A stretch of 64,000 nt of DNA from a candidate division WOR-3 bacterium (lineage in GTDB: Bacteria; Hydrothermota; Tepidihabitantia; Tepidihabitantales; Tepidihabitantaceae), in assembly GCA_965648905.1 (NCBI GenBank), contig CBFGIT010000016.1, positions 2,281 through 66,280 of the forward strand, given 5' to 3'. A program made the translations under genes and the position numbers. Positions 44,070 to 58,020 of this stretch are shown in pieces. Positions within the stretch are counted from its first letter, which is position 1. Each line of letters begins with the position of its first letter. The notes below the pieces were generated by a model. It was not told the origin of the DNA. It searched no databases and was given only the letters and a program-made list of their open reading frames with translations.

Positions 44070-46955
44070 CTACCAGTCGCGCAGAATGGCCCGCAGCCGG
44101 GCATTAACGAACTCATTCGTCTCTCCGGCCTGTACTTCCTTCATCGTTCGGACCAGCGGTTCGTCCATTATCCGACCCAGTGCCTCAACCGCACACAGCC
44201 GCACGAACGGCGTCTCGTGCCCAAGTTGGCCGACAAACGCCCGTCGGCTTCTTACCCGCAGTTCCCGTTGCTCAATAGTATCCAGCTTCTCGGCCAACTG
44301 GCCGGCAGCCCGCAAAGCATGTCCCAGTGCGCGGGGCGTAAGCTGCGGCACGGCCGAAAGCAATGGGTCAAGCGCCGGGGTGCCGGTCGCCACCAGTGCC
44401 AGCTCAGCGGCCGAGCGAACCGTAAACAGCCGGTCGTCAAGCGTCCGGATGAGCTCCGGAATTGCGGCCCGGCTCTTCAACTTGCCGCACGCCTCACTCG
44501 TCACAATCCGCGAAGGCTCATAGGAATCCCTGAGCAGATAGAGTATCTTGGGCACGACCGTCGAGTCACCGATGTCGCCCAGCGCATTGACCGCCCGGCG
44601 TGGGGTGATGCGCCCGGCCTTGAGTGCGGCAAGAATCGAGTCCACACCGTCCTGTGCCTTCTCCTTGAGCTGACCCAGCCAGTAGGCCGCGTTCTGCCGG
44701 GCCTGGAACCGGCTGTCACGCAGAGCGCGGAACAGGTAGGGCTTGGCCGTGTCCGGCATCGCCTTGACCAGTTCCTCAACCGCCCGCGACTCCAGCCCGT
44801 CCTTGGAATCGGCCTTCTTGTCGAACACATAGTCGAGCGCCTGACGACCCTGCCGAATCAACTGCTTGCGCGCCCGGGCGACCTTCTTCCGCGCATTGCC
44901 GACCTCCCAGATTGACGCGGTCTTGAACAGCGACTCAATCGGCTGGCTCAGACTGTCCGCTCCGAGGTCGGTCGTGTCGACATCCGGCTCCTCGTCAACC
45001 ACGGTCGCAGCGCGAGGCAGGTCCAGCCCGGAGCCAAAGGTCCCTTTGGTCCAGCTCGACCGGTCCCGGGCCACGTTGCTCTGCGGGTACTTATCCTTAC
45101 CGGCGAGGTCAAGGAACAGCCCCATGCCGCCGAACCCCCGGGCCGCATTGCCCGAGCCATGACTCAAGAAAGAGTCGGCGCACGTGTAGGCGTCGTTGCC
45201 ATCCTGGTCCAGGAACAGCCCGACCGAATTCGTCAAGCCGATACCCTGCCCGCCCGAGGAGTAGTAGACGTCGTCGCCTTTGCGGTCCACAAGCACGCCA
45301 ACCGAAAGGTCGTGCCCTTCGCCCTGACTTGGCCCGAGCCGGGACACATAGGCATCGCATCCCTCCTCGTCGACCAGCACGCCGACCGCAAGATGAATCC
45401 CTGCGCCCTGGGAATACTGGGCTGCGTTGTAGTGGTCAAATCCGGTCCCATCCCACAGCATCCCGAGTGCGTACCAGTAGCTTGTTCCCTGGCAGAACAC
45501 CTCGCCGTTGTAGAAATCATTGCCCGACCGGTCAAAGAGCAGAGCGATGCCCCCGGCCGCATCCGGTCGGCGGCCGATTGCAAAGCCGTGCGAGAAAGAG
45601 CGATATTCGTGCGGCAGCAGGGGCGCATGAACATACTCACCACCTGCGGTATAGACGTCGTTGCCCGCATGGTCGGCCAGAACCCCGTAGGCCCAGGTCG
45701 AGGAGAACCCCTGGCAGTAGCATGAACTTCGGTAGCTGTCGTTTCCACCTGCGTCTACCAGGAGCCCGGCTCCGAAATCGGCCGCGCCCTGGGCAAAGAA
45801 CCCGGCACGGTAGCAGTCGGTGCCGCCCTTGTCCCAGAGCAGTCCGGTCCCGAGAACCGCTGCACCCTGGCCGTAGTGCCGGCTGCGATAGACGTCGTTG
45901 CCGCTGCAGTCAATCAATACGCCGGCTCCGAACAGTGCCGCTCCTTGGCTGAATAGCTTGTCTGAGAAGTAGCAGTCGTCACCCCCAAGGTCAATCACGA
46001 CACTGAACGGTCGGTCAAGAACGCCAACCGCACCACCGGCCCGGTTCATGTAACGATCAGCACCGCCCAGTTCGATGATCACGGCGCAGTCTGACCGATA
46101 GACGTTATCGACGTGGCTACCAACCACTACCCGGCCGTACTCAGTCGCCAGGTCGAGCAGAACCGGGCCGTCAATGCCCTCAACGTTGCTGCCCATGACT
46201 TCCTGTTGGAGCAGAATCGGTTCAGGCCCCAGCAATCGCTCGGCCTCGCACGCAGCCATGGCCACCGCCAGACCGGAAAAAGCCAGGGCTTTGCGGTCGA
46301 GTCTACGCGCATAGGCCAGCAGGGTCTCGGACTTCACGTTCTGGGTTGTATCATAGACCCTGCCGAACTCAAGGTGCAGCACCCCGCTGAGCGGCTTCTC
46401 TAGTGTGTCGTCTTCGTCTTTCCAGAAATCCGGCGCCTCACCGAGCAGACGGTCAAGCTCGACCGGCGTGAGCCGAGCGACTGCCACACTGAGATAACGC
46501 TGGCCGACCGCGAAGCCGGCAAGGATGGTCTGCAACGCGCGAGCAAGATTGCCGGGGAGCGCTTCGGTTCCCGGCAGTGGTCTGACCGCCGCCCTGACCT
46601 CGCGGCCCAGCCGCACTGAGTCGGTGGGCACAAGACCCGCGTCGGTCGTAGCCCACTGGTGGAACAGGAAGGCGCTCGGTTCGGACTTGAGCCTGTCTAC
46701 AAGAGCCGCGGTTGACTCAGTATAAGCAACAACTTCGAGCGGACGGTCGAGCATCCGGTCCACGTCCTTCAACCGGAAGAAACTGTCCGGTGCCCATTGC
46801 TTGAAGAAACCAAGCTCTGACTCCTCGACACCCTGGATATCAAGTCCGTTGCGGAGTGCGGACCGGGAGAAAGAGTCAAGCCCGACGACCGAAACCGAGG
46901 AGGCAATCGCTGACGCCAGAAAAACAGGCAGGACGGCTAGGCCGAAAGTTCGCAA
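44070..46955 (-). CDS. Large exported protein with about 12 'hhhDxxGxDxY' repeats and C-terminal HEAT repeats
   Basis: Signal peptide; repeats such as VLIDCSGNDVY, LLVDAGGNDSY, LFLDQDGNDAY; HEAT-like 'VRSAAELAL', 'VRLCAVEALG'. Confidence 0.78.
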   Translation of the reverse strand: MRTFGLAVLPVFLASAIASSVSVVGLDSFSRSALRNGLDIQGVEESELGFFKQWAPDSFFRLKDVDRMLDRPLEVVAYTESTAALVDRLKSEPSAFLFHQWATTDAGLVPTDSVRLGREVRAAVRPLPGTEALPGNLARALQTILAGFAVGQRYLSVAVARLTPVELDRLLGEAPDFWKDEDDTLEKPLSGVLHLEFGRVYDTTQNVKSETLLAYARRLDRKALAFSGLAVAMAACEAERLLGPEPILLQQEVMGSNVEGIDGPVLLDLATEYGRVVVGSHVDNVYRSDCAVIIELGGADRYMNRAGGAVGVLDRPFSVVIDLGGDDCYFSDKLFSQGAALFGAGVLIDCSGNDVYRSRHYGQGAAVLGTGLLWDKGGTDCYRAGFFAQGAADFGAGLLVDAGGNDSYRSSCYCQGFSSTWAYGVLADHAGNDVYTAGGEYVHAPLLPHEYRSFSHGFAIGRRPDAAGGIALLFDRSGNDFYNGEVFCQGTSYWYALGMLWDGTGFDHYNAAQYSQGAGIHLAVGVLVDEEGCDAYVSRLGPSQGEGHDLSVGVLVDRKGDDVYYSSGGQGIGLTNSVGLFLDQDGNDAYTCADSFLSHGSGNAARGFGGMGLFLDLAGKDKYPQSNVARDRSSWTKGTFGSGLDLPRAATVVDEEPDVDTTDLGADSLSQPIESLFKTASIWEVGNARKKVARARKQLIRQGRQALDYVFDKKADSKDGLESRAVEELVKAMPDTAKPYLFRALRDSRFQARQNAAYWLGQLKEKAQDGVDSILAALKAGRITPRRAVNALGDIGDSTVVPKILYLLRDSYEPSRIVTSEACGKLKSRAAIPELIRTLDDRLFTVRSAAELALVATGTPALDPLLSAVPQLTPRALGHALRAAGQLAEKLDTIEQRELRVRSRRAFVGQLGHETPFVRLCAVEALGRIMDEPLVRTMKEVQAGETNEFVNARLRAILRDW

Positions 46956-47010: not shown

Positions 47011-47085
47011 ATGCTACGCTCGCTCCTGCGGTTGTCAATCGCTGCGGCCGGGCCGGTTTGACTGCCGCGCGCAAGCCGCTATAGT
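47011..47085. promoter_or_regulatory. Divergent promoters (minus: TTGACA-16-TAGCAT; plus: TTGACT-16-TATAGT, leaderless ATG 47093)
   Basis: Minus hexamers at 47033-47038 and 47011-47016; plus hexamers at 47058-47063 and 47080-47085. Confidence 0.65.
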
Positions 47086-47092
47086 CGTTGGC

Positions 47093-48298
47093 ATGAGACC
47101 CATACTACTGTTGCTGACCGCAGCCCTGGCGGTCACCGGCTGCAAGGAAACAAGGTCCGACCTGCCGGCCAAAGGTACGCCTTTTACCGACTCGGTCTAC
47201 GGAGCGACTCTCGTCCGCATCTCAGACAAGACCACCGATAACTACTCAGGACATGGTATCCAGAACGAGTATGCGCGCGCCGACGCCTGGAACGCTGATG
47301 GCTCGTACCTGATACTCCGCAGCAATGACGGCGTATTCTATCTGTACAGCGGCTCGACTTATGCCTTGGTGCGCAGTCTCGATGAACTCGGCGGCGGCCA
47401 GGAGCTGGAACCGCGCTGGCATGACACTGACCCGGATGTGTTCTACTACGTGGCCGGGCCGAACCTGAAGCGGTTCCGGGTCTCAACCGGCAACCAGGAA
47501 GTGGTCCACGACTTCACCGCTCAGTTCCCGGGCTGCCACTTCGTCAGTACCGGTGTCGAAGGCGATGCCTCCCGGGACCGAAGATACTGGTGCTTCGAAG
47601 TCTCGGACAGCCTGTTCAATCTGCTGGCGGTCTGTGTCTACGACGTGCTCACCGACTCGGTCGTGGGCAGAAAGACGTCGTTTCCGGATGCCGTCAACCA
47701 TGTAACCATGGACGCAGGCGGGAACCACGCGGTCGTCGCCTATGACGACTCGGTGCCGTTTGAATCGTACTCACCCGACTTCAGCCGTGTGGTGCGCATG
47801 CCGACTGGTGCGCTTGGCCATGCTGATGTCGCTCTAACCAAGGACGGCCGTGACGTCATCGTGTACCAGAACATCGCGACCGACTTCATCGAGATGGCCG
47901 ACCTTGAGACCGGAACTGCCACCCAGTTGCTTGCGATTCCGTTCGACGTCAATACCGACATCGGCCTGCACGTCTCCGGTAACTGCTACGACAAACCGGG
48001 CTGGGTGCTGGTCTCAACCTACGGAGCAAAGAACCCGGATGCGGGTCGACAGCATTCATGGATGGACAACCTTCTGTTCATGCTCGAACTGAAACCGAAC
48101 CCCGACACCGCGAAGCTGGCCCAGACCCGCTGCTACACAGGCACAAAGCCGCGCTCCAACTACTTTGCCGAGTCGTTTGCCAGCATCAACCACGCCGGCA
48201 CCAGGGTCATATTCGGCTCGAACTGGGGAATCCTTTCCCTTGATGACTACACCGATGCCTATGAGCTGCGCATGCCTGCCGACTGGGACAGCCGCTAG
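47093..48298 (+). CDS. Lipoprotein, probable beta-propeller
   Basis: 'MRPILLLLTAALAVTGC' lipobox; 'AWNADGSYL', 'ASINHAGTRVIFGSNW' propeller-like blades. Confidence 0.75.
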   Translation: MRPILLLLTAALAVTGCKETRSDLPAKGTPFTDSVYGATLVRISDKTTDNYSGHGIQNEYARADAWNADGSYLILRSNDGVFYLYSGSTYALVRSLDELGGGQELEPRWHDTDPDVFYYVAGPNLKRFRVSTGNQEVVHDFTAQFPGCHFVSTGVEGDASRDRRYWCFEVSDSLFNLLAVCVYDVLTDSVVGRKTSFPDAVNHVTMDAGGNHAVVAYDDSVPFESYSPDFSRVVRMPTGALGHADVALTKDGRDVIVYQNIATDFIEMADLETGTATQLLAIPFDVNTDIGLHVSGNCYDKPGWVLVSTYGAKNPDAGRQHSWMDNLLFMLELKPNPDTAKLAQTRCYTGTKPRSNYFAESFASINHAGTRVIFGSNWGILSLDDYTDAYELRMPADWDSR

Positions 48299-48316
48299 AC
48301 CGGTGCGGCGCGGTTG

Positions 48317-49330
48317 ATGAAACGGTCGTACCACGAACAGCCTGAGTTCTGGACCACGGTTGCGTCGGTGCTGGCACTGACGGTCGGTCACTACGCTGCT
48401 CCGACGCACGACCCGTTCTGGCACGACCTGTTCCGGCGGTTGTACTATCTGCCGATTATCCTGGCCGGATTCCGCTACGGTCTCAGAGGCGGACTCATCA
48501 CTGCCGGGTTCATCTCGCTCTTCTTCCTGCCCCACGTGCTGATGACCCGGACCACACTCGCACGCCAGGCCAGCGAGGCGGTATTTGAAGTCCCTCTGTA
48601 TGCGGTCGTCGGTGCGGTAACCGGACTCCTGAGCGACCGACAGCGCCGGGCCGATGCGTCATTGCGCCGGGCCGAGCGACTCAAGACCCTCGGGCAGATG
48701 GCGGCAGGCATGGCCCACGAAGTAAAGAACCCGTTGGCCGCGGTCCGCAGCGCGGCCCAGATGCTCGACCGCCGCGCCCGCGACAAGGACGCTGAGCTGA
48801 CGCGCATCATCCTGTCTGAGGTGGACCGACTCAATCGCGTCGTCGATGACTTCCTGAGCTACGCCCGGCCTGCGCCGTTGAGGTACGGCCCGCTGCGACT
48901 GAGCCAGGTTACCCGAACGTGCGTCGAACTGCTGACGTCCCAGATGACCGACCAAGGCAAGCAAGTCAGTCAGTCCTGGCCTGAGAATGAAGCCGAGGTC
49001 GAGGGCGATGCCAGCCTGCTCAGACAACTGTTTCTCAACCTGCTGCTCAACGCAATTCAGGCGGCGAAACAGAGCATCGTCGTAACCGGCACTCAGACTG
49101 GGCGCGAACTAAGAGTCGATATCGTCGACGATGGCCCGGGAATCCCGGCCGGGAGTCTGAAGCATGTGTTCGAACCTTTCTACACGACACGGCCCGGCGG
49201 CACCGGCCTGGGCCTGGCCATTGCCCGGCGCATCGCAGCCGACCACGGTGGCAGGATAGAGCTTTCCAGCGCACCGGGCAAGGGCACCACGGCAACCGTG
49301 GTCCTGCCGAGAAACCGAGCCACCAGATGA
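48317..49330 (+). CDS. Membrane sensor histidine kinase
   Basis: Several TM helices; H-box 'AHEVKNPL', N-box 'NLLLNAIQA', G1 'DDGPGI', F 'FEPFYTT', G2 'GTGLGL'. Confidence 0.95.
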   Translation: MKRSYHEQPEFWTTVASVLALTVGHYAAPTHDPFWHDLFRRLYYLPIILAGFRYGLRGGLITAGFISLFFLPHVLMTRTTLARQASEAVFEVPLYAVVGAVTGLLSDRQRRADASLRRAERLKTLGQMAAGMAHEVKNPLAAVRSAAQMLDRRARDKDAELTRIILSEVDRLNRVVDDFLSYARPAPLRYGPLRLSQVTRTCVELLTSQMTDQGKQVSQSWPENEAEVEGDASLLRQLFLNLLLNAIQAAKQSIVVTGTQTGRELRVDIVDDGPGIPAGSLKHVFEPFYTTRPGGTGLGLAIARRIAADHGGRIELSSAPGKGTTATVVLPRNRATR

Positions 49331-50673
49331 ACCGCCATCGCGTCCTTGTGGTCGACGACGACCCGAACGTTGCTTCGGTCGTGCGCCTGCTGCTTGAAGA
49401 AGAACACCACGAACCCGAGGTCGTCTCCAGTGTCACCGGAGCGCTTCAGACCGTGCGTCAGGGCGGTCCAGACCTTGTCATCACCGACCTGAAGCTGCCT
49501 GACGGCACCGGGCTTGAGGTACTCCAGGAGGTGAAACAGATGAGCCCGGACACGCCGGTCATTCTCATCACCGCGTATGCCACAGTGAGCACCGCGGTCG
49601 CGGCGATGAAAGCCGGCGCCTATGACTATCTGACCAAGCCATTTGACAACGACCGGTTCAAGGGCCTTGTGGCTAATGCCCTGCGTCTGCGCGACCTTGC
49701 ACGCGAGAATCGACGGCTGCGCAGCGAAGTCGAGGAACAGGTCGGGCTCGGCGCCATTGCCGGGTCCAGCCCGCAGATGCAGAAGGTCCGAGACTTGGTG
49801 CGCCTGGCGGCCACAAGCGATGCCGCGCTTATGGTTCTGGGTGAGACCGGCACCGGCAAGGAGCTGGTGGCCCGGGCGGTTCATTTCCTCAGCACCCGGG
49901 CCGCCGGACCGTTCATCGCAGTGAACTGCGGAGCGATACCTGAGAGCCTGGTCGAGAGCGAGCTGTTCGGCCACAAGAAAGGCTCGTTCACCGGCGCGGT
50001 CGCAGACCGCGATGGGCGATTTGTCCAGGCTGATTCCGGCACCATTCTCCTCGATGAAGTCACCGAGATGAAGCGCGAAGTTCAGGTGAAGCTCCTGCGG
50101 GTGATTGAGACCCGTGAAGTGCAACCGGTCGGCAGCACCGAGACCGTCAAGGTGGACGTCCGCATCATCAGTGCCGCCAACCGTCAGCCTGCGGCCTGTG
50201 TCCGCGCCGGCGAGTTCCGCGAAGACCTCTACTATCGCCTGAATGTATTCACCTTGAGCATCCCGCCCCTGCGCGAACACCGGCCGGACATTCCCGAACT
50301 GGTTGCAGCCTATCTCACGCGGCGCGGGTTTCCGGCCGACACGGTCAGTCCGGAAGCGCTCGCGCTTCTGGCCGAGCACGACTTTCCCGGCAATGTCCGG
50401 GAGCTGCAAAACGTCGTCGAGTACGGTCTGATTCTGAGTCAGGGCCGGCTGGTCGTTCCCGAACACATTGCCGACCGGCTGATGCCTCGGCTCGCTGAAC
50501 CTGACATCCCTGACGCCGGTCTCTCGCTTGCTGACGTCGAGAAAAGCCACCTTGAAGCCGCACTCCGGAAATCGGGCGGCAACCAGTCCCGCGCTGCCCG
50601 CCTGCTCAACATTTCCCGCGCGACCCTGCTCTACCGGATGAGGAAATACGGACTGGGACCGGACCGGGCATGA
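49327..50673 (+). CDS. NtrC-family sigma54-dependent response regulator
   Basis: REC 'VVDDD...TDLKLP', 'GETGTGKE', 'GSFTGA', 'LLDE', 'FREDLYYRL', 'PGNVREL', Fis HTH. Confidence 0.96.
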   Translation: MNRHRVLVVDDDPNVASVVRLLLEEEHHEPEVVSSVTGALQTVRQGGPDLVITDLKLPDGTGLEVLQEVKQMSPDTPVILITAYATVSTAVAAMKAGAYDYLTKPFDNDRFKGLVANALRLRDLARENRRLRSEVEEQVGLGAIAGSSPQMQKVRDLVRLAATSDAALMVLGETGTGKELVARAVHFLSTRAAGPFIAVNCGAIPESLVESELFGHKKGSFTGAVADRDGRFVQADSGTILLDEVTEMKREVQVKLLRVIETREVQPVGSTETVKVDVRIISAANRQPAACVRAGEFREDLYYRLNVFTLSIPPLREHRPDIPELVAAYLTRRGFPADTVSPEALALLAEHDFPGNVRELQNVVEYGLILSQGRLVVPEHIADRLMPRLAEPDIPDAGLSLADVEKSHLEAALRKSGGNQSRAARLLNISRATLLYRMRKYGLGPDRA

Positions 50674-51725
50674 TGCCAGACACCCGCGTCTCAGCGCCGG
50701 CGGTCGAGGCGTTCCGCCATGCCCTGCCGAGTCTGTTGCAGGCGGTTGACGAGCGCATCACCGTTGACGCCTCATTTCATTGTGGCGGGATGTCCTGCGA
50801 CCGATTGACTCTCTCCCGTGAGTACAACGAGCAGTTCGGCCGGACCCTGCTGGCCACATGTGACTTCGGCCTGCCTGACCAGCTCGCGCACGAATTCAGG
50901 TGGCTCGTGAATGTTCTGTCCCGGCGCGGGTTTCTGCCCGAATACTTCGGCCGGATGCTTGAGGCATGGAGTATCGCGATCGTCACCCATCTTGGCTCAG
51001 ATGACGCCGTTGAGCTCCTGCTCCTGCTCGACCACCTGCGCGGCACTCTCGGTCTGTCTCTTGAAGCACAGCAGTACGGGACCGAGTTGACGGACGAGGC
51101 CAAGCAGTTCCTCGCCGCCATACTGGCTCGACAGCGGCGTGTTGCCACTGCCCATGCGCTTTCAATTCTCAGGCAGGGCACTCCGCTGCCCGAAGTCATC
51201 AGCCGGGTGGTGCTGCCTGCCCTGTCGAGAATCGGCTCACTCTGGGAGTCGGCGGCCCTGTCAGCGGCTGAGGAGCACGCCGCGACCGAACTCTGCCGGT
51301 ACGTGCTCCTGCAGCTCTTTGATGCCGTAACTCCGGACCCGGCTTTGGGCCGACGGGCGCTGGTTGCGTGTGTGCCCGGGGAAGAACACGCGCTTGGTGC
51401 CCAGCTTGTCGCTGAGTACCTGACCCTCAGGGGCTGGGATGTGTTCGCGGTCGGACGCAGCGCACCACAGGAGGATATCCTGGTCGCAGTCGCCAAGTTC
51501 AGGCCCGAGGTGCTCCTCCTTTCGGTCACGATGGTCGCCAACCTGCTGCCGGCGCGCGAGTTGATCGAGGCAGCGCGAGCTGCCAGCACCAAACTCGGTA
51601 TCGTCATCGGCGGCCGGGCAGCGCAACCAGCGCGGCCGAGACTGGAGGAGCTGGGACTGACCGTGGTGGGTCGTTTCGAACAAGCGCACGAAGCTGCTCT
51701 GACAACGGCCCGGAACGATGCGTAG
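50670..51725 (+). CDS. Cobalamin-binding protein: N-terminal globin/phycobiliprotein-like domain + B12-binding-2 + B12 Rossmann domain (photocobilin-like)
   Basis: 'W-ESAALSAAE-EH' (Wx9EH), 'GEEHALG' (ExHxxG), 'LLLSVTM', 'IVIGGRA'; helical N-terminal 130 aa with 'WL..VL..RG' pattern. Confidence 0.8.
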   Translation: MMPDTRVSAPAVEAFRHALPSLLQAVDERITVDASFHCGGMSCDRLTLSREYNEQFGRTLLATCDFGLPDQLAHEFRWLVNVLSRRGFLPEYFGRMLEAWSIAIVTHLGSDDAVELLLLLDHLRGTLGLSLEAQQYGTELTDEAKQFLAAILARQRRVATAHALSILRQGTPLPEVISRVVLPALSRIGSLWESAALSAAEEHAATELCRYVLLQLFDAVTPDPALGRRALVACVPGEEHALGAQLVAEYLTLRGWDVFAVGRSAPQEDILVAVAKFRPEVLLLSVTMVANLLPARELIEAARAASTKLGIVIGGRAAQPARPRLEELGLTVVGRFEQAHEAALTTARNDA

Positions 51726-52839
51726 GTACGCTGCGGTCCGGATGCTGCTGCACGAACGGTCCACGACCGCGGGCGCGGTTCTCGGTGTTGTCGCGATTGT
51801 CTTTCTGGTTGGCCAGCAGCTCGCCGTGCTCTTCGGGCTTCTTGCGCTCATGTCGGCACTGATTGACAACAGCGGCGCTGACATCTGGGTCGTTTCGCAG
51901 AATACCACAAATACCCAGTCGGCCGGGACTCTGCCCAGCCGCTACGTTGACCGCCTTGCCGGGCTGGATGGAGTAGAATGGGCGCAGCCGATTGTCATCG
52001 GCGCTGGCCAGCTCAAGCTGGCCAACGGGACGTTCCAGCCCGTGCAGATAGTTGGCGTTTCTCGGCCTCAGATGCGCGGCGGACCATGGCAGTTCGCCGC
52101 TGGTTCGAACGACGTGTTGCTGGAGTACGACGGTGTGACCGTGGACAAGTTCGACCTCGAAGACCTGGGTGAGCCAAAGCTGGGTGAGGTCGTTGAAGTG
52201 AACTCACGCCGCGTGCGCATTGCCGGCTACACCGAAGGGTCGCGAGTGTTCGGGGCGCCGCTGCTCTTCACCAATGCCACCAAGGCACGCGAGGTAACCG
52301 GACTGCCGACTGACCGGTGCAGCAACATCCTGGTCAAACTCAAGCCGGGCAAGAGCGTGGCCCAGGCGGTTGCCGACATCAAAGCGCTCCTGCCCAGGGC
52401 CGAGCCGATTCCTGCGGCTGAACTTGCCCGCAACACCAAGTTGTACAACCTGACCAGCACCGGCATCGGCTCGAGCTTCGGGGTATCGACCATGGTCGGT
52501 GTGCTGGTTGGCGTCATCATCATTACCCTGACGATGTACACCAACGTTCTGAACCGCCAGCGTGACTTCGCCGTGTTGCGGGCCCTGGGCGGCCGCCGGC
52601 GCGACGTCTTTGTCATCATCATGTATCAGGCACTGACCATCGGATTCATCGGCCTGCTCATCGGCTTCTTCCTGATTGCCGGGTTCCTGTTCGGGGTAAA
52701 GGGCTCGCGCCTGCCCGCAAACCTGCCGCTCTGGGTTGCGCCGTCCCATGCTCTGCTTACTCTCCTGCTCTGTTTTGGCGGCTCTGCGCTTGCTGTACGC
52801 CGGGCGCTGAAGATTGAACCGGCTTCGGCCTTCCGCTAG
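51718..52839 (+). CDS. ABC exporter permease (FtsX/DevC-like)
   Basis: TM1, 'ADIWV' periplasmic domain, 'RDFAVLRALG', terminal 'IEPASAFR'. Confidence 0.9.
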   Translation: MRRYAAVRMLLHERSTTAGAVLGVVAIVFLVGQQLAVLFGLLALMSALIDNSGADIWVVSQNTTNTQSAGTLPSRYVDRLAGLDGVEWAQPIVIGAGQLKLANGTFQPVQIVGVSRPQMRGGPWQFAAGSNDVLLEYDGVTVDKFDLEDLGEPKLGEVVEVNSRRVRIAGYTEGSRVFGAPLLFTNATKAREVTGLPTDRCSNILVKLKPGKSVAQAVADIKALLPRAEPIPAAELARNTKLYNLTSTGIGSSFGVSTMVGVLVGVIIITLTMYTNVLNRQRDFAVLRALGGRRRDVFVIIMYQALTIGFIGLLIGFFLIAGFLFGVKGSRLPANLPLWVAPSHALLTLLLCFGGSALAVRRALKIEPASAFR

Positions 52840-53559
52840 ATGGCGGCACCGGTTCTCCGACTTGAGGGCGTGGCCCGCGACTTCTCGGACGGCCGCGTCA
52901 CCCGGCGCGTGCTCAAGGAAACCACGCTCGACATCATGCCGGCCGAACTCACTGCCCTGGCCGGACCATCAGGCTCGGGCAAGACCACGCTGCTCACCAT
53001 CATGGGCCTTGTGCTCAAGCCTTCGGCCGGCCGAATCTACGTCACCGGGGAAGACGTAACCGACCGCACTGAAGACGAACTCGCGACTCTGCGTTTGAAC
53101 AAGTATGGCTTTGTTTTCCAGCAGGCCGCGCTGGTCCCGGCCCTGTCGGTGCTCGACAACGTGCTGGTCGCGACTGCGATTCAGGGCGCGAAGGTTCGAC
53201 CGGAGACCCGCCAACAGGCGGTCAATCTGCTCGAGCGCCTGGGCATGAGAGACTACCTCGACGTCCGACCCCAGCAGCTTTCCGGCGGTCAACAGCAGCG
53301 GGTGGGCATTGCCCGGGCCATGGTCGGCGACCCGGCGCTGCTGCTGTGCGACGAACCAAGCTCAGCGCTCGACGTCGAGAGCAGCCACGCCGTGCTCGAC
53401 TCGCTCAAGAGACTAGCGCGTGACCCGCACCGGGCCGTGGTGCTGGTCACCCATGACCCGAGGGTATTCCCCTATGCCGACCGACTGGTGAAGATGGAAG
53501 ATGGTACAATAGTCTACGACAGCCGACTTGCGGCTGAAGGAGGCAGACACAATGCGTAG
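52840..53559 (+). CDS. ABC transporter ATP-binding protein (LolD/DevA-like)
   Basis: 'GPSGSGKT', 'LSGGQQQRV', 'LLCDEP', 'VTHD'. Confidence 0.96.
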   Translation: MAAPVLRLEGVARDFSDGRVTRRVLKETTLDIMPAELTALAGPSGSGKTTLLTIMGLVLKPSAGRIYVTGEDVTDRTEDELATLRLNKYGFVFQQAALVPALSVLDNVLVATAIQGAKVRPETRQQAVNLLERLGMRDYLDVRPQQLSGGQQQRVGIARAMVGDPALLLCDEPSSALDVESSHAVLDSLKRLARDPHRAVVLVTHDPRVFPYADRLVKMEDGTIVYDSRLAAEGGRHNA

Positions 53560-54424
53560 GAGCTTTGGTCGGGTAGTTACGTGGCTCGCCGTGGTCCTGG
53601 TCCTGTTCTTCATCGTCTTCGCCCTGGTTCGTTCCCGTCCAGGAAAACGAACGCCACTCCAACCCAGCCTCGCTTCGGCCCCGGCCCGAGTCTACGGCAC
53701 AATCGAACCGCTCGGCGGCCCGGTCTACGTCAGCGCTCCGCTATCGCGCAGCGTCATCCGCATCGCGGTCCGCGAGGGTGACACGGTCAGGGCCGGTCAG
53801 GTACTGGTCGAGCTTGAGAACTCGGTCGAGGCAGCCCAGGTTGCTGCCGCGGCCGGTCGGGCTGAGGCCGCACGCAAGGCTTGGGCAATCAGCCGAGAGA
53901 CCTGGGAGCGCAGCACCGGGCTCAAGGCAACGAACGGCATATCAGACCAGGAGTACCGCTCGGCGCTGCTCAAGGCCCAGCTCGACTCGGCCTTGGCTGC
54001 CGCGGCTGAAGCAGACCTGCGACTGGCACAGGCGGCCCTCGAACAGCTAACTCTGAAGTCACCGGTCAACGGCCTGGTGTACAAACTCGACGTGAGACTG
54101 GGGCAGACCATGGCTTCCGGAGATGATTCCAAAGTCACCCTCGGCTCGCCCCGGCTCCAGGTCAGGATGTTTGTCGAGTCGTTCTGGCATGACCGACTCA
54201 AGGTCGGAGACTCCTGCCGGGTCTTCGACCCGGAGACCGGCCGCGACCTGGGCTCAGGTGGAGTGTTGTCCATCTCACCCTATGTTGGCGGCCGAACCGT
54301 GCGCACCGAAGACCCCAGAGAGCGATTCGACGCCGAATACCGAACTGCGGTTCTTGAACTCGACACTGCCGGCCTGCCCCTTGGCATGAACGTTGTCGCG
54401 GAACTCCGGTCTGACGCCAGGTAG
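53552..54424 (+). CDS. HlyD/DevB-family membrane fusion (periplasmic adaptor) protein
   Basis: N-terminal TM, 'VREGDTVRAGQVL', coiled hairpin, 'LKSPVNG', 'LPLGMNV'. Confidence 0.88.
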   Translation: MRRSFGRVVTWLAVVLVLFFIVFALVRSRPGKRTPLQPSLASAPARVYGTIEPLGGPVYVSAPLSRSVIRIAVREGDTVRAGQVLVELENSVEAAQVAAAAGRAEAARKAWAISRETWERSTGLKATNGISDQEYRSALLKAQLDSALAAAAEADLRLAQAALEQLTLKSPVNGLVYKLDVRLGQTMASGDDSKVTLGSPRLQVRMFVESFWHDRLKVGDSCRVFDPETGRDLGSGGVLSISPYVGGRTVRTEDPRERFDAEYRTAVLELDTAGLPLGMNVVAELRSDAR

Positions 54425-54428
54425 TCGC

Positions 54429-55385
54429 ATGAAGCCTGTTGTCGTCGTCAGCAAGTGCCTCGGCTTCGCGCATTGCCGGTATAACGGCGAAATCATCGAA
54501 GACCCGTTTGTCCGACGGCTCCGCGACTTCGTCGAATTCCAGCCGGTCTGTCCGGAGATGGAGATTGGGCTCGGGGTGCCGCGTGACCCAATCCGGGTCG
54601 TGTTTGTCGAAGGTCGGCTCCGGTTAATCCAACCGGCAACCGGCCAGGACTTTTCAGGAGAGATGAACGCGTTTGCCGAGAAGTACCTCGCCGGCCTCGG
54701 CCCGGTGGACGGGTTTCTGCTCAAGTCGCGTTCGCCATCCTGCGGCACAAGGGACGTGAAGATCTACAACGAAACCGGCAATGTACTGCCGGCAACAAGC
54801 CGGCAAGGGTTGTTCGGCGCCGCCGTTCTGAGCCGTTTCCCGCTTCTGCCGATTGAGGACGAAGGAAGGCTCAGGAACTTCCTTATCCGTGACCGGTTCC
54901 TCACAATGCTCTTCACGCTGACGCGGTTCCGTGAGTTGACAAAGGAACCGACCATGGCGCGTCTCACCTCGTTTCACGCCCGGCACAAGCTGCTCCTTCT
55001 GACCTACAATGAACAAGTCATGCGCCGGCTCGGCAAGGTCGGCGCCAACGAGGAACATAGGCCTGTCGCCGAAGTGTACAAGGAGTACGGCCAGACACTG
55101 CCCCAGGTGTTCACCCGCCCGCCCAAGTACACCGCAGCCACGAACGTCCTGATGCACGCGCTTGGCTACTTCAGGCAGAGACTCTCGGCTCAGGAGAAAT
55201 CGTTCTTCCTTGACACGTTGGAACGCTATCACAGAGGCAGACTGCCGCTCAGCGTGCCGGTTGGCATCCTGCGCTCCTGGGTTATCCGATTCAACGAACC
55301 TTATCTCGCGCAGCAAGTGATGTTCCAGCCCTACCCGGAAGAGCTGACCGACATCACTGACTCGGGCAAAGGCCGCGACCGCTAG
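54429..55385 (+). CDS. DUF523 (2-thiouracil desulfurase-like) + DUF1722 protein, YbgA-like
   Basis: 'VSKCLG...RYNG', 'VCPEMEIGLGVPR', 'KSRSPSCG', 'EDEGRL', 'FHARHKLLL', 'NVLMHALGYF', 'PYP'. Confidence 0.9.
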   Translation: MKPVVVVSKCLGFAHCRYNGEIIEDPFVRRLRDFVEFQPVCPEMEIGLGVPRDPIRVVFVEGRLRLIQPATGQDFSGEMNAFAEKYLAGLGPVDGFLLKSRSPSCGTRDVKIYNETGNVLPATSRQGLFGAAVLSRFPLLPIEDEGRLRNFLIRDRFLTMLFTLTRFRELTKEPTMARLTSFHARHKLLLLTYNEQVMRRLGKVGANEEHRPVAEVYKEYGQTLPQVFTRPPKYTAATNVLMHALGYFRQRLSAQEKSFFLDTLERYHRGRLPLSVPVGILRSWVIRFNEPYLAQQVMFQPYPEELTDITDSGKGRDR

Positions 55386-55387
55386 CC

Positions 55388-56299
55388 TTGCGCATCGGCT
55401 ACCCCTGCATCAACCGCTCGATCGGCTGCACCTCGGCCCGGACGTTTCGGCTCGCTTCGTACTCAGACGAACGGCTGCAGGAGACGGTCGCGGCCAACCT
55501 AGAGTGCCTGGAGCGCATCCTGCTCTGGAACGTTGAGCACGGCATCGGCTTCTTCCGCATCACATCTGACCTGGTGCCGTTCGCCTCTCACCGGGTCTGC
55601 CGCTTCAACTGGGCGCATCATTTCCGCAGCCGGTTCCGCTCTTTGGGGCGGTTTGTCCAGCAGCATGGCATGCGCATTTCAATGCACCCGGACCAGTTTG
55701 TCCTGCTCAATGCACTGGACAGAAGAATCGTCGAGAGCAGCATTCGCGAGCTGCAGTACCACTGCCAGATTCTTGACCTGATGCGACTGCCGCTGACGGC
55801 CAAAGTCCAGATTCACCTGGGCGGTGTCTACCGCGACAAAGCGGCAAGCAAGGCACGCTTCGTCGAACGTTACCGGAAACTGCCGACCACGATGAGGCGT
55901 CGCCTCGTCATCGAGAATGACGACCGGACCTACACTGTTGCCGACTGCCTTGAGATCAGTCGTGCCACAACTGCACCGGTCCTGTTCGATGTGTTCCACC
56001 ACAAGGTGAACAACTCTGGTGAGACCGTGGCCGAGGCACTCAGGGCCTGCGCACGCACCTGGCGAAGGACTGACGGCGTGCTGATGGTCGATTATTCATC
56101 CCAGGAACCAGGCCAGCGCTGGGGCCGGCATGCCGAACACATCGACTTGGCGGACTTCCGGCGATTCCTTGGCGCGGTACACGGTATGGATTTAGACATC
56201 ATGCTCGAAATCAAGGACAAAGAAGCAAGTGCGCTCGCCGTACTCCGCCTCCTTTCTCCGTCCTCATTCCCCTCTTGCGGCCGACAGCAACGACGCTAG
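55388..56299 (+). CDS. uvsE: UV DNA damage endonuclease UvsE
   Basis: 'IGYPCIN', 'FFRITSDLVPFASH', 'RISMHPDQF', 'IHLGG', 'LVIENDD', 'FDVFHH', 'IMLEIKDKE'. Confidence 0.94.
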   Translation: MRIGYPCINRSIGCTSARTFRLASYSDERLQETVAANLECLERILLWNVEHGIGFFRITSDLVPFASHRVCRFNWAHHFRSRFRSLGRFVQQHGMRISMHPDQFVLLNALDRRIVESSIRELQYHCQILDLMRLPLTAKVQIHLGGVYRDKAASKARFVERYRKLPTTMRRRLVIENDDRTYTVADCLEISRATTAPVLFDVFHHKVNNSGETVAEALRACARTWRRTDGVLMVDYSSQEPGQRWGRHAEHIDLADFRRFLGAVHGMDLDIMLEIKDKEASALAVLRLLSPSSFPSCGRQQRR

Positions 56300-56334
56300 A
56301 CTTAGTCAATGACAGGCACAAATGGAGCACAACC

Positions 56335-57237
56335 CTGAAGCCGGGCGACTTTGTCTTCGTTGACCCCGAGGGCCGCCGGGTCAGACTCGAGATAAGACCG
56401 GTCACCAAGGATGACCTTGACCGCTACATCAACGACTTGCTAAACACTGACTGGGGGAAAGATGAAACGGCAATGGTGCTCAACCCGAGTCTGCAGCTCG
56501 AAGATGTCGTTCAAACCCGGATGTTCAGCGCGACACGCGTCTTCCTGCGGTATCTTGACGAAATCGGTGGCTCGCCGCTGACCCCAACGGGCTGGATGAA
56601 GCGTAAGGTCGTTGCCCAATTGATCGAGCGCATCACTTGGGCCCAGGAGTACGTCAATCCTATCCGGCATGTCATGAAGAAACTGGATGAGTTCGACGTC
56701 AAGCCGATCAGTGCCGTCCGGGCAGTGTGCGACGTCGGCGGACTGGTACGCAAGCACAAGAACACCATCGTCCCGACACGCAAAGGACTCGAACTATGCG
56801 ACGACCGCAGGGCCGGCGCACTCTACCGCCACCTCTTCATATCGATGTTTCACCGGCTCAGCCTTGATTTCCTCCATGGCGGCCGACCGACGCCCCACCT
56901 CCAATGGTCGGTGCCAGTCATCCTCTGGCGACTGTCACTCGTGGCCGGCGACTGGCTTGACATGCCCCGCCTGATAGATGAGACCTTGCTGCCTCAGGTG
57001 CAACGCGAACTCGCGGCTGATGACTTCGACATCGGCCAGTATGTCTTCGCCGGACGCGTCTTGAAGCCTCTGCTCTGGTTCGGACTGCTCGAGACTAAGG
57101 GCGACCCGGAAGACTGGCGCTGGCGTGTGAGAACCGCTGTCTTTCGCAAGACACCGCTTTTCGACCAGTTCCTTCAGTTCCAGTGGCGACTGACGGTAAC
57201 ACCACTTCCGGTCCCGCCCGACCCCCGGTTCAACTGA
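56335..57237 (+). CDS. Hypothetical protein; probable CTG start
   Basis: Long ORF with winged-helix-like 'LTPTG.MKRKVV', 'GLVRKHK...TRKG', 'PLLWFGLLE'; GGAG 7 nt before in-frame CTG at 56335. Confidence 0.65.
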   Translation: MKPGDFVFVDPEGRRVRLEIRPVTKDDLDRYINDLLNTDWGKDETAMVLNPSLQLEDVVQTRMFSATRVFLRYLDEIGGSPLTPTGWMKRKVVAQLIERITWAQEYVNPIRHVMKKLDEFDVKPISAVRAVCDVGGLVRKHKNTIVPTRKGLELCDDRRAGALYRHLFISMFHRLSLDFLHGGRPTPHLQWSVPVILWRLSLVAGDWLDMPRLIDETLLPQVQRELAADDFDIGQYVFAGRVLKPLLWFGLLETKGDPEDWRWRVRTAVFRKTPLFDQFLQFQWRLTVTPLPVPPDPRFN

Positions 57238-57351
57238 ACTGAACCGACGCTCTGCCCGAACCGACTACCTGGAACTCACGGCTGCAGTCCGACCGGCGCG
57301 GTGCCGCCGCCAACCGTCAGGTCTGCTCATGCTCAATCCGGCATGCTACCG

Positions 57352-57939
57352 CTAGCCCACCTGACCTGCCCAACCGACTCGCAGCGCCCGATTGACAGCA
57401 TCAGGCAGGAACGTCCGCGGGTCGAAGGTAGCGCCCAGACGAATGACCGCATCCTTGTGCCCGGGATGCTTCGGACTAGCCAGCGCCTTCTGCAGTTCAT
57501 AGTAGCCGCGCACGCCACCGCAGTTCTCCGGCGGACAGGCGTTCGCGCCGGCCAGACAGAGCGGATGGCCCGGGTAGCGCTCGTCCTTATCGACGATGCT
57601 CTCAACTTCGACCGTGTGCAGCCAGCGGTCGCGCAGGTCGTACTCGTAGACAAAAGCTTGACCGACCTTGGGCGCCACCTTCCTGAGCTGAACCTTGCGT
57701 TCGTCCTTGGTGCGTTTGATGTCCATCTCCGGGTCTGAATACGCCTTGTCCCCGATGTGGAACACGTGCAACTGGCTGTTGGTCCAGCCCAGGGCAGTCT
57801 GCAATACCCAGTGCAGGTTCGCAAGTGTCACCTCGCCCGGAACCAACAGCCTGCGCCAGACCTCAGGCCCTGAATCCTGCAGAGAAACTCTCAGTTGGTA
57901 TATCATGCTTTCGGCCTTTCTTTCAGGCTTAGGCACCAT
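57352..57939 (-). CDS. Plasmid pRiA4b ORF-3-like family protein
   Basis: 'IYQLRVSL...VWRRLLVP', 'LHWVLQ.ALGW...LHVF', 'YEYD', 'ACPPENCGGVRGY', 'FDP'. Confidence 0.88.
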   Translation of the reverse strand: MVPKPERKAESMIYQLRVSLQDSGPEVWRRLLVPGEVTLANLHWVLQTALGWTNSQLHVFHIGDKAYSDPEMDIKRTKDERKVQLRKVAPKVGQAFVYEYDLRDRWLHTVEVESIVDKDERYPGHPLCLAGANACPPENCGGVRGYYELQKALASPKHPGHKDAVIRLGATFDPRTFLPDAVNRALRVGWAGQVG

Positions 57940-57946
57940 GTGCCCT

Positions 57947-58020
57947 AGCATAAACACGGGCCGGCCCTTGTCAAGCCTGTCCGGGGACAGTTTTGATTCT
58001 GCCGGCTAACAGACTATGAT
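57947..58020. promoter_or_regulatory. Divergent leaderless promoters (minus: TTGACA-16-TATGCT, ATG 57939; plus: TTGATT-16-TATGAT, ATT 58027)
   Basis: Hexamers at 57969-57974/57947-57952 (minus) and 57993-57998/58015-58020 (plus). Confidence 0.65.

Follow-up and report, generated by a model that had tools for sequence, protein, structure and literature searches.

A photocobilin-like B12 gene joined to a MacB-type ABC exporter in a candidate division WOR-3 bacterium: a candidate for light-dependent export

In a stretch of 64,000 nucleotides from a candidate division WOR-3 bacterium (GenBank assembly GCA_965648905.1, contig CBFGIT010000016.1, positions 2,281 to 66,280 of the forward strand; hereafter the window, with positions counted from its first letter), a gene for a B12-binding protein of apparently light-sensing type is packed together with genes for a two-component system, an ABC exporter and two putative UV-response enzymes. 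Which of these neighbours is the partner of the B12 protein? An earlier note on this DNA had proposed a light-sensing module working either through the kinase/sigma54 activator or through the exporter. Comparison with related loci indicates that the conserved unit consists of four genes, encoding the B12 protein, a MacB/DevC-like permease, an ABC ATPase and a periplasmic adaptor. Our reading, to which we assign an even chance of being right, is that the B12 photoreceptor acts through protein contact on the ABC exporter, both being part of an operon for light/UV stress. The four genes of the cassette are as follows.

50670..51725, + strand: B12 protein gene, with domains B12-binding_2 plus B12-binding
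51718..52839, + strand: MacB/DevC-like ABC permease, with MacB_PCD and FtsX domains
52840..53559, + strand: ABC ATPase, DevA/MacB-like by Pfam and NCBIfam
53528..54424, + strand: HlyD/membrane-fusion-type periplasmic adaptor, its likely start being the ATG at 53552

The family of the B12 protein is small and comes from uncultured bacteria; a word-indexed search retrieved 39 clusters, the closest of them named candidate division WOR-3. We mapped the proteins of the window onto loci seeded with the B12 protein, 17 of full-length type from species genomes and 12 from relatives of the window's genome, the named sources including WOR-3, Zixibacteria, Ignavibacteria, Thermodesulfobacteriota and 'delta proteobacterium' metagenome-assembled genomes (MAGs). 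Wherever downstream DNA was available, the order B12 gene, permease, ATPase, adaptor was kept (16 of 16 species-genome loci and 12 of 12 loci from the relatives). The converse test was seeded with the permease and gave 80 metagenome loci, 73 with enough upstream DNA, and in 71 of these 73 the permease is immediately preceded by the B12 gene. After de-duplication over all collections, the arrangement is found in 86 of 87 unique assessable loci. The junction itself is also kept: 78 of 95 loci (14 of the 95 being duplicates) show an overlap of exactly 8 nt between B12 stop and permease start, and in 94 of 95 the two lie between -14 and +9 nt from each other, with B12 proteins down to 24% identity to that of the window. 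The permease is predicted to be translationally coupled to the B12 gene.

Presence and divergence of the two genes follow the same pattern. The permease occurs in 19 of the 272 genomes of a phylum sample and, among 61 relatives searched for both proteins, the same 16 genomes carry a full-length B12 protein and the permease, the other 45 carrying neither at the thresholds used. When loci are compared with the window, B12-protein identity and permease identity covary (Spearman 0.92 over 67 unique loci, kin among these not being independent), a covariation which shows joint inheritance of the two genes and does not amount to a test. Because of the linkage, the fixed overlap, the co-occurrence and the covarying identity, the B12 gene and the permease can be said to behave as parts of a single unit. 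The exporter branch of the earlier proposal is borne out in this respect, the linkage of B12 gene and ABC exporter being conserved across phyla.

The exception to the linkage is L132, with its near-copy L134, in which a CorA gene occupies the position of the B12 gene before the permease (L132:3885-6122) and the DUF523 gene is present. Three other loci (L016, L125, and L126) show the order CorA, B12 gene, permease. The L132/L134 lineage seems to have lost its photoreceptor gene cleanly and to have kept pump and DUF523 gene. Two 'delta proteobacterium' MAGs show irregularities of another kind, the B12 gene at L017:10001-11016 and the ATPase gene at L012:12486-13173 each matching in two pieces in different frames, as a result of frameshifts or sequencing errors.

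Regarding the B12 protein, its layout comprises a globin-fold N-terminal domain (residues ~1–135), a four-helix cap (142–218) and a Rossmann B12 domain (229–348). The earlier assignment of a Wx9EH domain of the light-sensing class agrees with both signature and fold, W192, E202, and H203 being invariant in 30 homologues. The available text of PMC11796333 gives GxxW, EH, GxxH, and GxxxP as the signature by which light-responsive cobalamin domains can be told from those of enzyme type, and this signature is complete here (G189-W192, E202-H203, G237-H240, and G262-P266), with seven of the eight named residues invariant in the 30 sequences and G237 at 90% or more. Searched against the Protein Data Bank (PDB), the family profile finds photocobilins first (8j2x/8j2w, E 5e-33) and then CarH, while the best NCBIfam model is CarH with 59.7 bits, corrinoid methyl-carrier models reaching 34.9 bits or less. 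In the AlphaFold model (pLDDT 92.4, pTM 0.89), residues 138–351 superpose on photocobilins with Z scores of 24.8 and 24.6 (8j2w_B, Z 24.8, rmsd 2.6 over 207 residues) and on CarH with 19.2 (5c8d_A); a Foldseek match to 8jbs (E 1.4e-9) is in agreement. By sequence signature and predicted fold, the B12 domain is shown to be of the photoreceptor class, CarH type. A CobA-type adenosyltransferase is encoded in the window's genome. The protein shares with CarH/LitR the cobalamin module with Wx9EH and the lower-ligand His, and presumably the general purpose, a response to light damage; unlike them it has no MerR DNA-binding domain and carries a globin-fold domain in its place. A scan of 30 members at E values up to 1 gave no match to a DNA-binding family, whether helix-turn-helix (HTH) or other, in any of them.

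Residues 1–135 of the model form five to six helices, and their structural matches are all non-heme or sensor globins with Z 12.6–13.2, values near 13 being such as can reflect common helical packing according to the tool's own warning. These matches include the N-domain of RsbR (2bnl_A, Z 13.2, 124 aligned), a globin-coupled sensor (4uiq_A, Z 13.2, 132 aligned), the bilin-binding domain of ApcE (4xxi_A, Z 12.9, rmsd 2.2, 115 aligned) and allophycocyanin (8or7_A, Z 12.8); the globin assignment was made on the model of the whole protein. By sequence, a widened N-domain profile had as its best PDB match the globin domain of the photocobilin SasPcob (8j2x/8j2w) at a marginal E of 0.048. The narrow profile gave no PDB match, and the domain falls into no Pfam family. 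Neighbours in a language-model atlas that carry the Phycobilisome family, with neighbour scores of 0.77–0.83, are leads only, and an hhalign comparison of the N-domain of L021's N-domain-plus-B12 protein with A2 was not significant (probability 3.8%). An exhaustive profile search among 1.84 billion proteins yielded 203 N-domain representatives at E 0.001 or better. Of the longer matches, 22 of the 23 scanned carry two B12 domains behind the N-domain; 13 short ones (136–162 aa) gave no family above cut-off and one weak B12-binding match (E 0.004).

We file the protein as a stand-alone photocobilin-like photoreceptor with putative chromophores. Photocobilins and the photoglobin family, with the stand-alone SasPcob (8j2w/8j2x), likewise join a CarH-type cobalamin domain to a globin-fold domain, photoglobin being defined by its globin fold and placing the globin domain before or after two B12 domains (PMC8717448; for the order also PMC10979010). 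They are the best solved relatives of the B12 protein by sequence and fold, and their stand-alone members act by protein contact. The present proteins differ from them in that the globin domain is N-terminal and of marginal sequence likeness, in that the subfamily is small, and in their tie to an ABC exporter.

A B12 protein devoid of a DNA-binding domain could also work through a partner protein, as AerR and PpaA do, and AerR is indeed among the structural matches (7te2, Z 17.9). The B12 protein would then be an AerR-like light-sensing transcription co-regulator that binds an unlinked DNA-binding protein and controls the operon, the pump being merely a co-expressed output, a possibility which we consider unlikely. 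Precedents exist, since AerR and PpaA are stand-alone B12-domain proteins acting on CrtJ/PpsR (available text of PMC9144470), and most photoglobin loci adjoin signalling proteins (PMC8717448). However, no transcription factor recurs beside the cassette among 49 upstream-neighbour open reading frames (ORFs) from 16 loci. The fixed 8-nt overlap, kept over proteins down to 24% identity, fits a stoichiometric partner better than it fits a free regulator, and the presence of the B12 protein and of the pump is matched in all 61 genomes compared. The partner of AerR and PpaA is a transcription factor of photosynthesis genes, whereas here the conserved neighbour is the pump and the signature is of the CarH type.

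The pump is predicted to be a MacB-type ABC exporter, consisting of an FtsX permease with a MacB periplasmic core, an ABC ATPase and a membrane-fusion adaptor, and the Pfam scores of its subunits are all above cut-offs (PF02687 64.1, PF12704 58.4, PF00005 109.8, and PF13437 30.7 bits). It shares with DevBCA, MacAB-TolC and HrtBA the FtsX permease with a MacB periplasmic domain, the separate or fused ATPase and the adaptor. It differs from DevBCA, the exporter of heterocyst glycolipids, in scoring below the NCBIfam cut-offs of all three families (DevC 69.8 against 290.35, DevA 208.1 against 295.8, and DevB 58.2 against 129). To our knowledge no photoreceptor subunit is known for DevBCA, MacAB-TolC or HrtBA, and literature searches turned up none. 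The best solved match of the permease is weak (7w78, E 0.0011); it corresponds to HrtB of the heme efflux pump HrtBA, as described in the available text of PMC9271180. One idea for the substrate, to be taken as a lead only, is that of photosensitising tetrapyrroles; another, a conjecture, is a protective envelope lipid or pigment.

These likenesses also allow a function in the dark, with the B12 protein sensing or carrying corrinoids or tetrapyrroles in the cytoplasm and the pump removing corrinoids, porphyrins or related compounds, light being irrelevant or acting only through phototoxicity. MacB-type pumps handling tetrapyrroles do exist, HrtB being the weak match just mentioned, and the N-domain shares the fold of bilin-binding globins. 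We nevertheless regard this as improbable, given that the cobalamin domain bears the full light-responsive signature and scores with the CarH model well above the corrinoid methyl-carrier ones. The recurring neighbours are UV-damage genes, none of them of cobalamin or heme metabolism, and no cobalamin riboswitch reached threshold in the window, where Rfam at gathering thresholds detected no family.

Which neighbours recur is best followed along the whole array, made up of nine co-oriented + strand genes between 47.1 and 56.3 kb, eight of them named by Pfam and NCBIfam. The eight tightly packed genes of the earlier note are all on the + strand where they had been placed, and their Pfam identities agree. 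The remaining features are listed here.

47058..47085, + strand: sigma70-type promoter (TTGACT, 16 nt, TATAGT; 10 of 12 consensus matches)
47093..48298, + strand: gene for a 401-aa lipoprotein of no known family, with a Cys-containing signal peptide
48314..49330, + strand: membrane histidine kinase, with HisKA, HATPase_c and weak DUF4118 matches (membrane part DUF4118-like)
49327..50673, + strand: NtrC-type sigma54 activator, with Response_reg, Sigma54_activat and HTH_8; AAA+ domain with GSFTGA loop
54393..55385, + strand: fusion of TudS (DUF523; 2-thiour_desulf) and DUF1722, RudS-type, its likely start being the ATG at 54429
55388..56299, + strand: UV damage endonuclease UvdE/UvsE (PF03851, TIGR00629)

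The lipoprotein gene ends 15 nt upstream of the kinase gene, and from there on the junctions are tight. Kinase and ntrC overlap by 4 nt, as do ntrC and the B12 gene (ATGA); after the 8-nt overlap of B12 gene and permease there is a gap of 0 between permease and ATPase, an 8-nt overlap of ATPase and adaptor (with the ATG at 53552 as start), a 4-nt gap between adaptor and DUF523 gene (with the ATG at 54429 as start), and a 2-nt gap between the latter and uvdE.

Both genes after the adaptor point to light or UV stress. The TudS-DUF1722 protein scores above cut-offs for both parts (PF04463 117.9 bits, PF08349 129.1 bits) and has three Cys at a spacing that matches the Cys positions tabled in PMC11417400; a phmmer search against PDB sequences gave 0 matches. 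In its available text, the same paper describes this fusion as RudS, a desulfidase taking 4-thiouridine out of tRNA, whose overexpression shortens the growth delay caused by UVA and whose genes frequently belong to operons that respond to light, including the LitR-controlled PhrB-LitR-RudS. The gene is predicted to encode a RudS-type tRNA 4-thiouridine desulfidase, and the 'thiouracil salvage' suggested in the earlier note is, going by that text, better read as removal of 4-thiouridine from tRNA. UvdE is identified by PF03851 (222.8 bits), TIGR00629 (198.4 bits against a cut-off of 124.45) and PDB 3tc3 (E 1.5e-80).

How general this neighbourhood is was counted over the 46 unique loci in which the sequence continues for 700 nt or more behind the adaptor gene. 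A DUF523-type gene comes next in 23 of them (15 full fusions, six with the TudS part only, and two cut by the contig end), followed by UvdE in 11 of the 23. These 23 are every locus with a permease at least 61% identical to that of the window, plus L125, L127, and L132. RudS and UvdE are also present in L127, whose B12 protein is only 29% identical. The linkage of DUF523/DUF1722 and UvdE and the light/UV theme claimed for them hold for one whole clade and a few distant loci. Two further lineages, L014 and L049, have a photolyase upstream on the same strand, accompanied in L014 by GTP cyclohydrolase I and HPPK, and these folate genes may serve the photolyase antenna. Overall, photolyase, HPPK, GTP cyclohydrolase I and a Rieske/pyridine-nucleotide oxidoreductase were seen upstream of distant cassettes on the same strand (L014:331-4419, L049:6722-8041, and L127:3-3684). 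No photolyase was found in the window's genome. Across loci, the light theme at the cassette is recurrent and not universal. The Pseudomonas light-inducible PhrB-LitR-RudS operon is a close parallel to this part of the array, since there too a B12 light sensor is encoded with RudS and a UV-lesion repair enzyme; as far as the available text of PMC11417400 goes, that operon has a MerR-type repressor, a photolyase and no pump, whereas here we find UvdE, the pump, and no photolyase in the genome.

Does the B12 protein instead signal to the kinase or NtrC beside it, driving the operon from a sigma54 promoter, as the first branch of the earlier proposal held? The 4-nt overlaps do tie the kinase, ntrC and B12 genes together in this genome, rpoN is present, and photoglobin loci often adjoin two-component genes (PMC8717448). 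However, no kinase or NtrC was found beside the cassette in any other related locus examined, whether seeded with the B12 protein or with the permease, the single weak exception being a kinase-like match in L140 (25% identity) on the opposite strand about 4 kb away. The nearest relative (L066/L089) is very similar to the window around this point, with identities of 84% for a HEAT protein, 81% for the lipoprotein, 72% for the B12 protein and 91% for the permease, and has the order HEAT gene, lipoprotein gene, 87-nt gap, B12 gene, with no kinase/ntrC pair at that spot. The alignment of the window to L066/L089 runs until about 12 nt past the lipoprotein stop and resumes at the start of the B12 gene; because it breaks and resumes there, a 2.36-kb segment with kinase and ntrC must have replaced the intergenic region before the B12 gene, as a recent, lineage-specific insertion. 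An assembly chimera was considered as the source of the segment and rejected: both ends are clean gene junctions and the pair is only 61–73% identical to the orthologues in relatives, with the relic on contig C4 described below diverged as well, at 80% identity over 46 nt.

Full-length orthologues of the pair are found in two related genomes, G001 (kinase 61%, NtrC 70%) and G010 (66–67% and 73%), on contigs other than that of the cassette. There they precede another operon, which encodes a pair of MacB-type permeases, a pair of ATPases and two proteins with no family; in both relatives a sigma54 promoter and an enhancer-type inverted repeat stand between ntrC and this second MacB-type operon. 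The genome of the window (G000) has the same second operon on contig C4, together with a perfect sigma54 promoter match (C4:94716-94731), a TGTCTG-N8-CAGACA repeat that is the only one of its kind adjoining a sigma54 promoter, and a relic of the last ntrC codons, 80% identical over 46 nt to the ntrC of the window. In the window itself no + strand match to a sigma54 promoter (GG-N10-GC type) was found within 44–58 kb. The kinase and NtrC proteins have a full set of domains. The sigma54 promoter of the second operon on C4 is the likely target of the pair, and we infer that it acts on that operon in trans, its place beside the B12 gene being an accident of one genome. Signalling from the B12 protein through the kinase/sigma54 activator is, on these comparisons, very improbable, and this branch of the earlier proposal is put aside. 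The neighbourhood survey which that note had called for gives a divided answer, with the exporter linkage conserved, DUF523 and UvdE in one clade and a few distant loci, and the kinase/NtrC pair not recurring.

In G001, G010 and on C4, the kinase and regulator belong with a MacB-type permease operon, an arrangement which we take to resemble BceRS-BceAB, where a two-component system is paired with a MacB-like ABC transporter. The membrane part of the kinase has no large periplasmic domain, and the regulator differs from the BceRS-BceAB case in being a sigma54 activator, not OmpR-type. On C4 (94640-94900) the promoter is followed by a short ORF for a membrane peptide of about 47 aa that is also seen in G001 and G010. 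Three contigs carry one and the same 16-base sigma54 promoter word (C3:137906, C4:94716, and C6:62606), which looks intergenic with a different upstream region on C6 and intragenic on C3.

Returning to contact between the B12 photoreceptor and the exporter, which is the reading we favour, we propose that the core would be the four-gene cassette, by which a cytoplasmic stand-alone B12 photoreceptor is co-made with a tripartite MacB/DevCAB-like exporter. In the dark, the adenosylcobalamin-loaded protein would adopt one oligomeric or conformational state. Green or blue light would cleave the Co-C bond and change this state, as shown for CarH and photocobilins, and the change would alter how the protein touches the cytoplasmic side of the pump, at the ATPase or at the strongly conserved N-terminus of the permease, so that export of a compound would become light-dependent. 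Stand-alone photocobilins have been described to change state in light and to regulate an enzyme by protein contact (available text of PMC10979010). In the WOR-3 clade of the window, the cassette would have been extended by the RudS-type desulfidase and UvdE to give one light/UV-stress operon, transcribed from a conserved promoter ahead of the lipoprotein gene. A more far-reaching version, which we put forward only tentatively, is that of a light-gated ABC exporter in which the B12/globin photoreceptor is a dedicated subunit of the MacB-type pump and transport, not transcription, is switched by light, in at least four non-phototroph phyla. A complex prediction with the B12 protein, the ATPase and the permease scored 0.22 against a mark of 0.32, and counts neither for nor against contact.

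Several observations weigh against control of the pump by light. Half of the unique loci counted above (23 of 46, those with a permease 50–60% identical to that of the window) have no adjacent light-related gene, and the L132/L134 lineage, which has no B12 gene, shows that the pump is able to exist without one. The globin-type matches of the N-domain are at the level at which common helical packing may suffice, as noted with their Z scores. No canonical heme oxygenase (PF01126) was found in the window's 99.6% complete genome, and for this reason a bilin as second chromophore is doubtful here. In the window, transcription of the cassette must now cross the inserted kinase and ntrC genes, because its own upstream intergenic region has been lost, and this may be a newly gained regulatory tie. 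Finally, the host organisms have mostly been recorded in sediments and other dim places, in which a role for light is less obvious.

Part of this architecture is already known, namely photoglobin-B12 proteins, CarH-type sensing, MacB-type pumps and RudS in light operons. The statement in the earlier note that the architecture was undescribed has to be narrowed accordingly, since proteins with photoglobin and B12 domains (photocobilins) are in print (PMC8717448, PMC10979010); it stands for the pairing with an exporter, which is absent from the main texts of these papers. No published example was found of a photoreceptor gene whose coupling to an ABC exporter is both obligate and translational, with the limit that supplementary neighbourhood figures of the photoglobin, photocobilin and RudS papers may depict one; of the photocobilin papers retrieved, none deals with a transporter, judged by titles and abstract openings. 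The available text of the defining paper calls the function of stand-alone photocobilins unclear (PMC10979010), and the cassette offers a concrete, conserved candidate partner for them. If our reading were true, this would be the first case known to us of a photoreceptor directly controlling an ABC transporter, and, being compact and of two parts, a candidate for putting export under light control in engineered cells. It also gives a hint of the way in which uncultured lineages of sediments and hot springs, such as WOR-3 and Zixibacteria, cope with light. For neighbourhood reasoning in general the locus carries a caution, as its most eye-catching neighbours, the kinase and the sigma54 activator, are an insertion in one genome.

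As to the borders of the unit, the promoter at 47058-47085 is the only conserved sigma70-type promoter found for it and is likely to be the start of the whole transcription unit. Neither of its hexamers nor the ATG of the lipoprotein gene varies between the window and its two closest relatives, L066 and L001. The conserved -10 hexamer ends 7 nt before this ATG, and because of this the transcript of the lipoprotein gene may be leaderless. The lipoprotein (47093-48298) has no family in Pfam or NCBIfam; a homologue 81% identical is found at the same position in L066/L089 and another in L001, and it appears to be the first gene of the unit in this genus only. Divergent from it, on the - strand at 44070-46955, lies the gene for a 961-aa protein with C-terminal HEAT repeats, 84% conserved in L066 and a stable neighbour of the unit in this genus. 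A tRNA scan of the window found none. At the other end, the last part of uvdE is overlapped by a 320-aa ORF (56275-57237) that belongs to no family and matched nothing in the related loci; a PRiA4_ORF3 gene (plasmid pRiA4b ORF-3-like) adjoins it on the - strand. This region (56275-57957) may be a boundary of acquired DNA, because the GC content falls there to 0.58–0.60.

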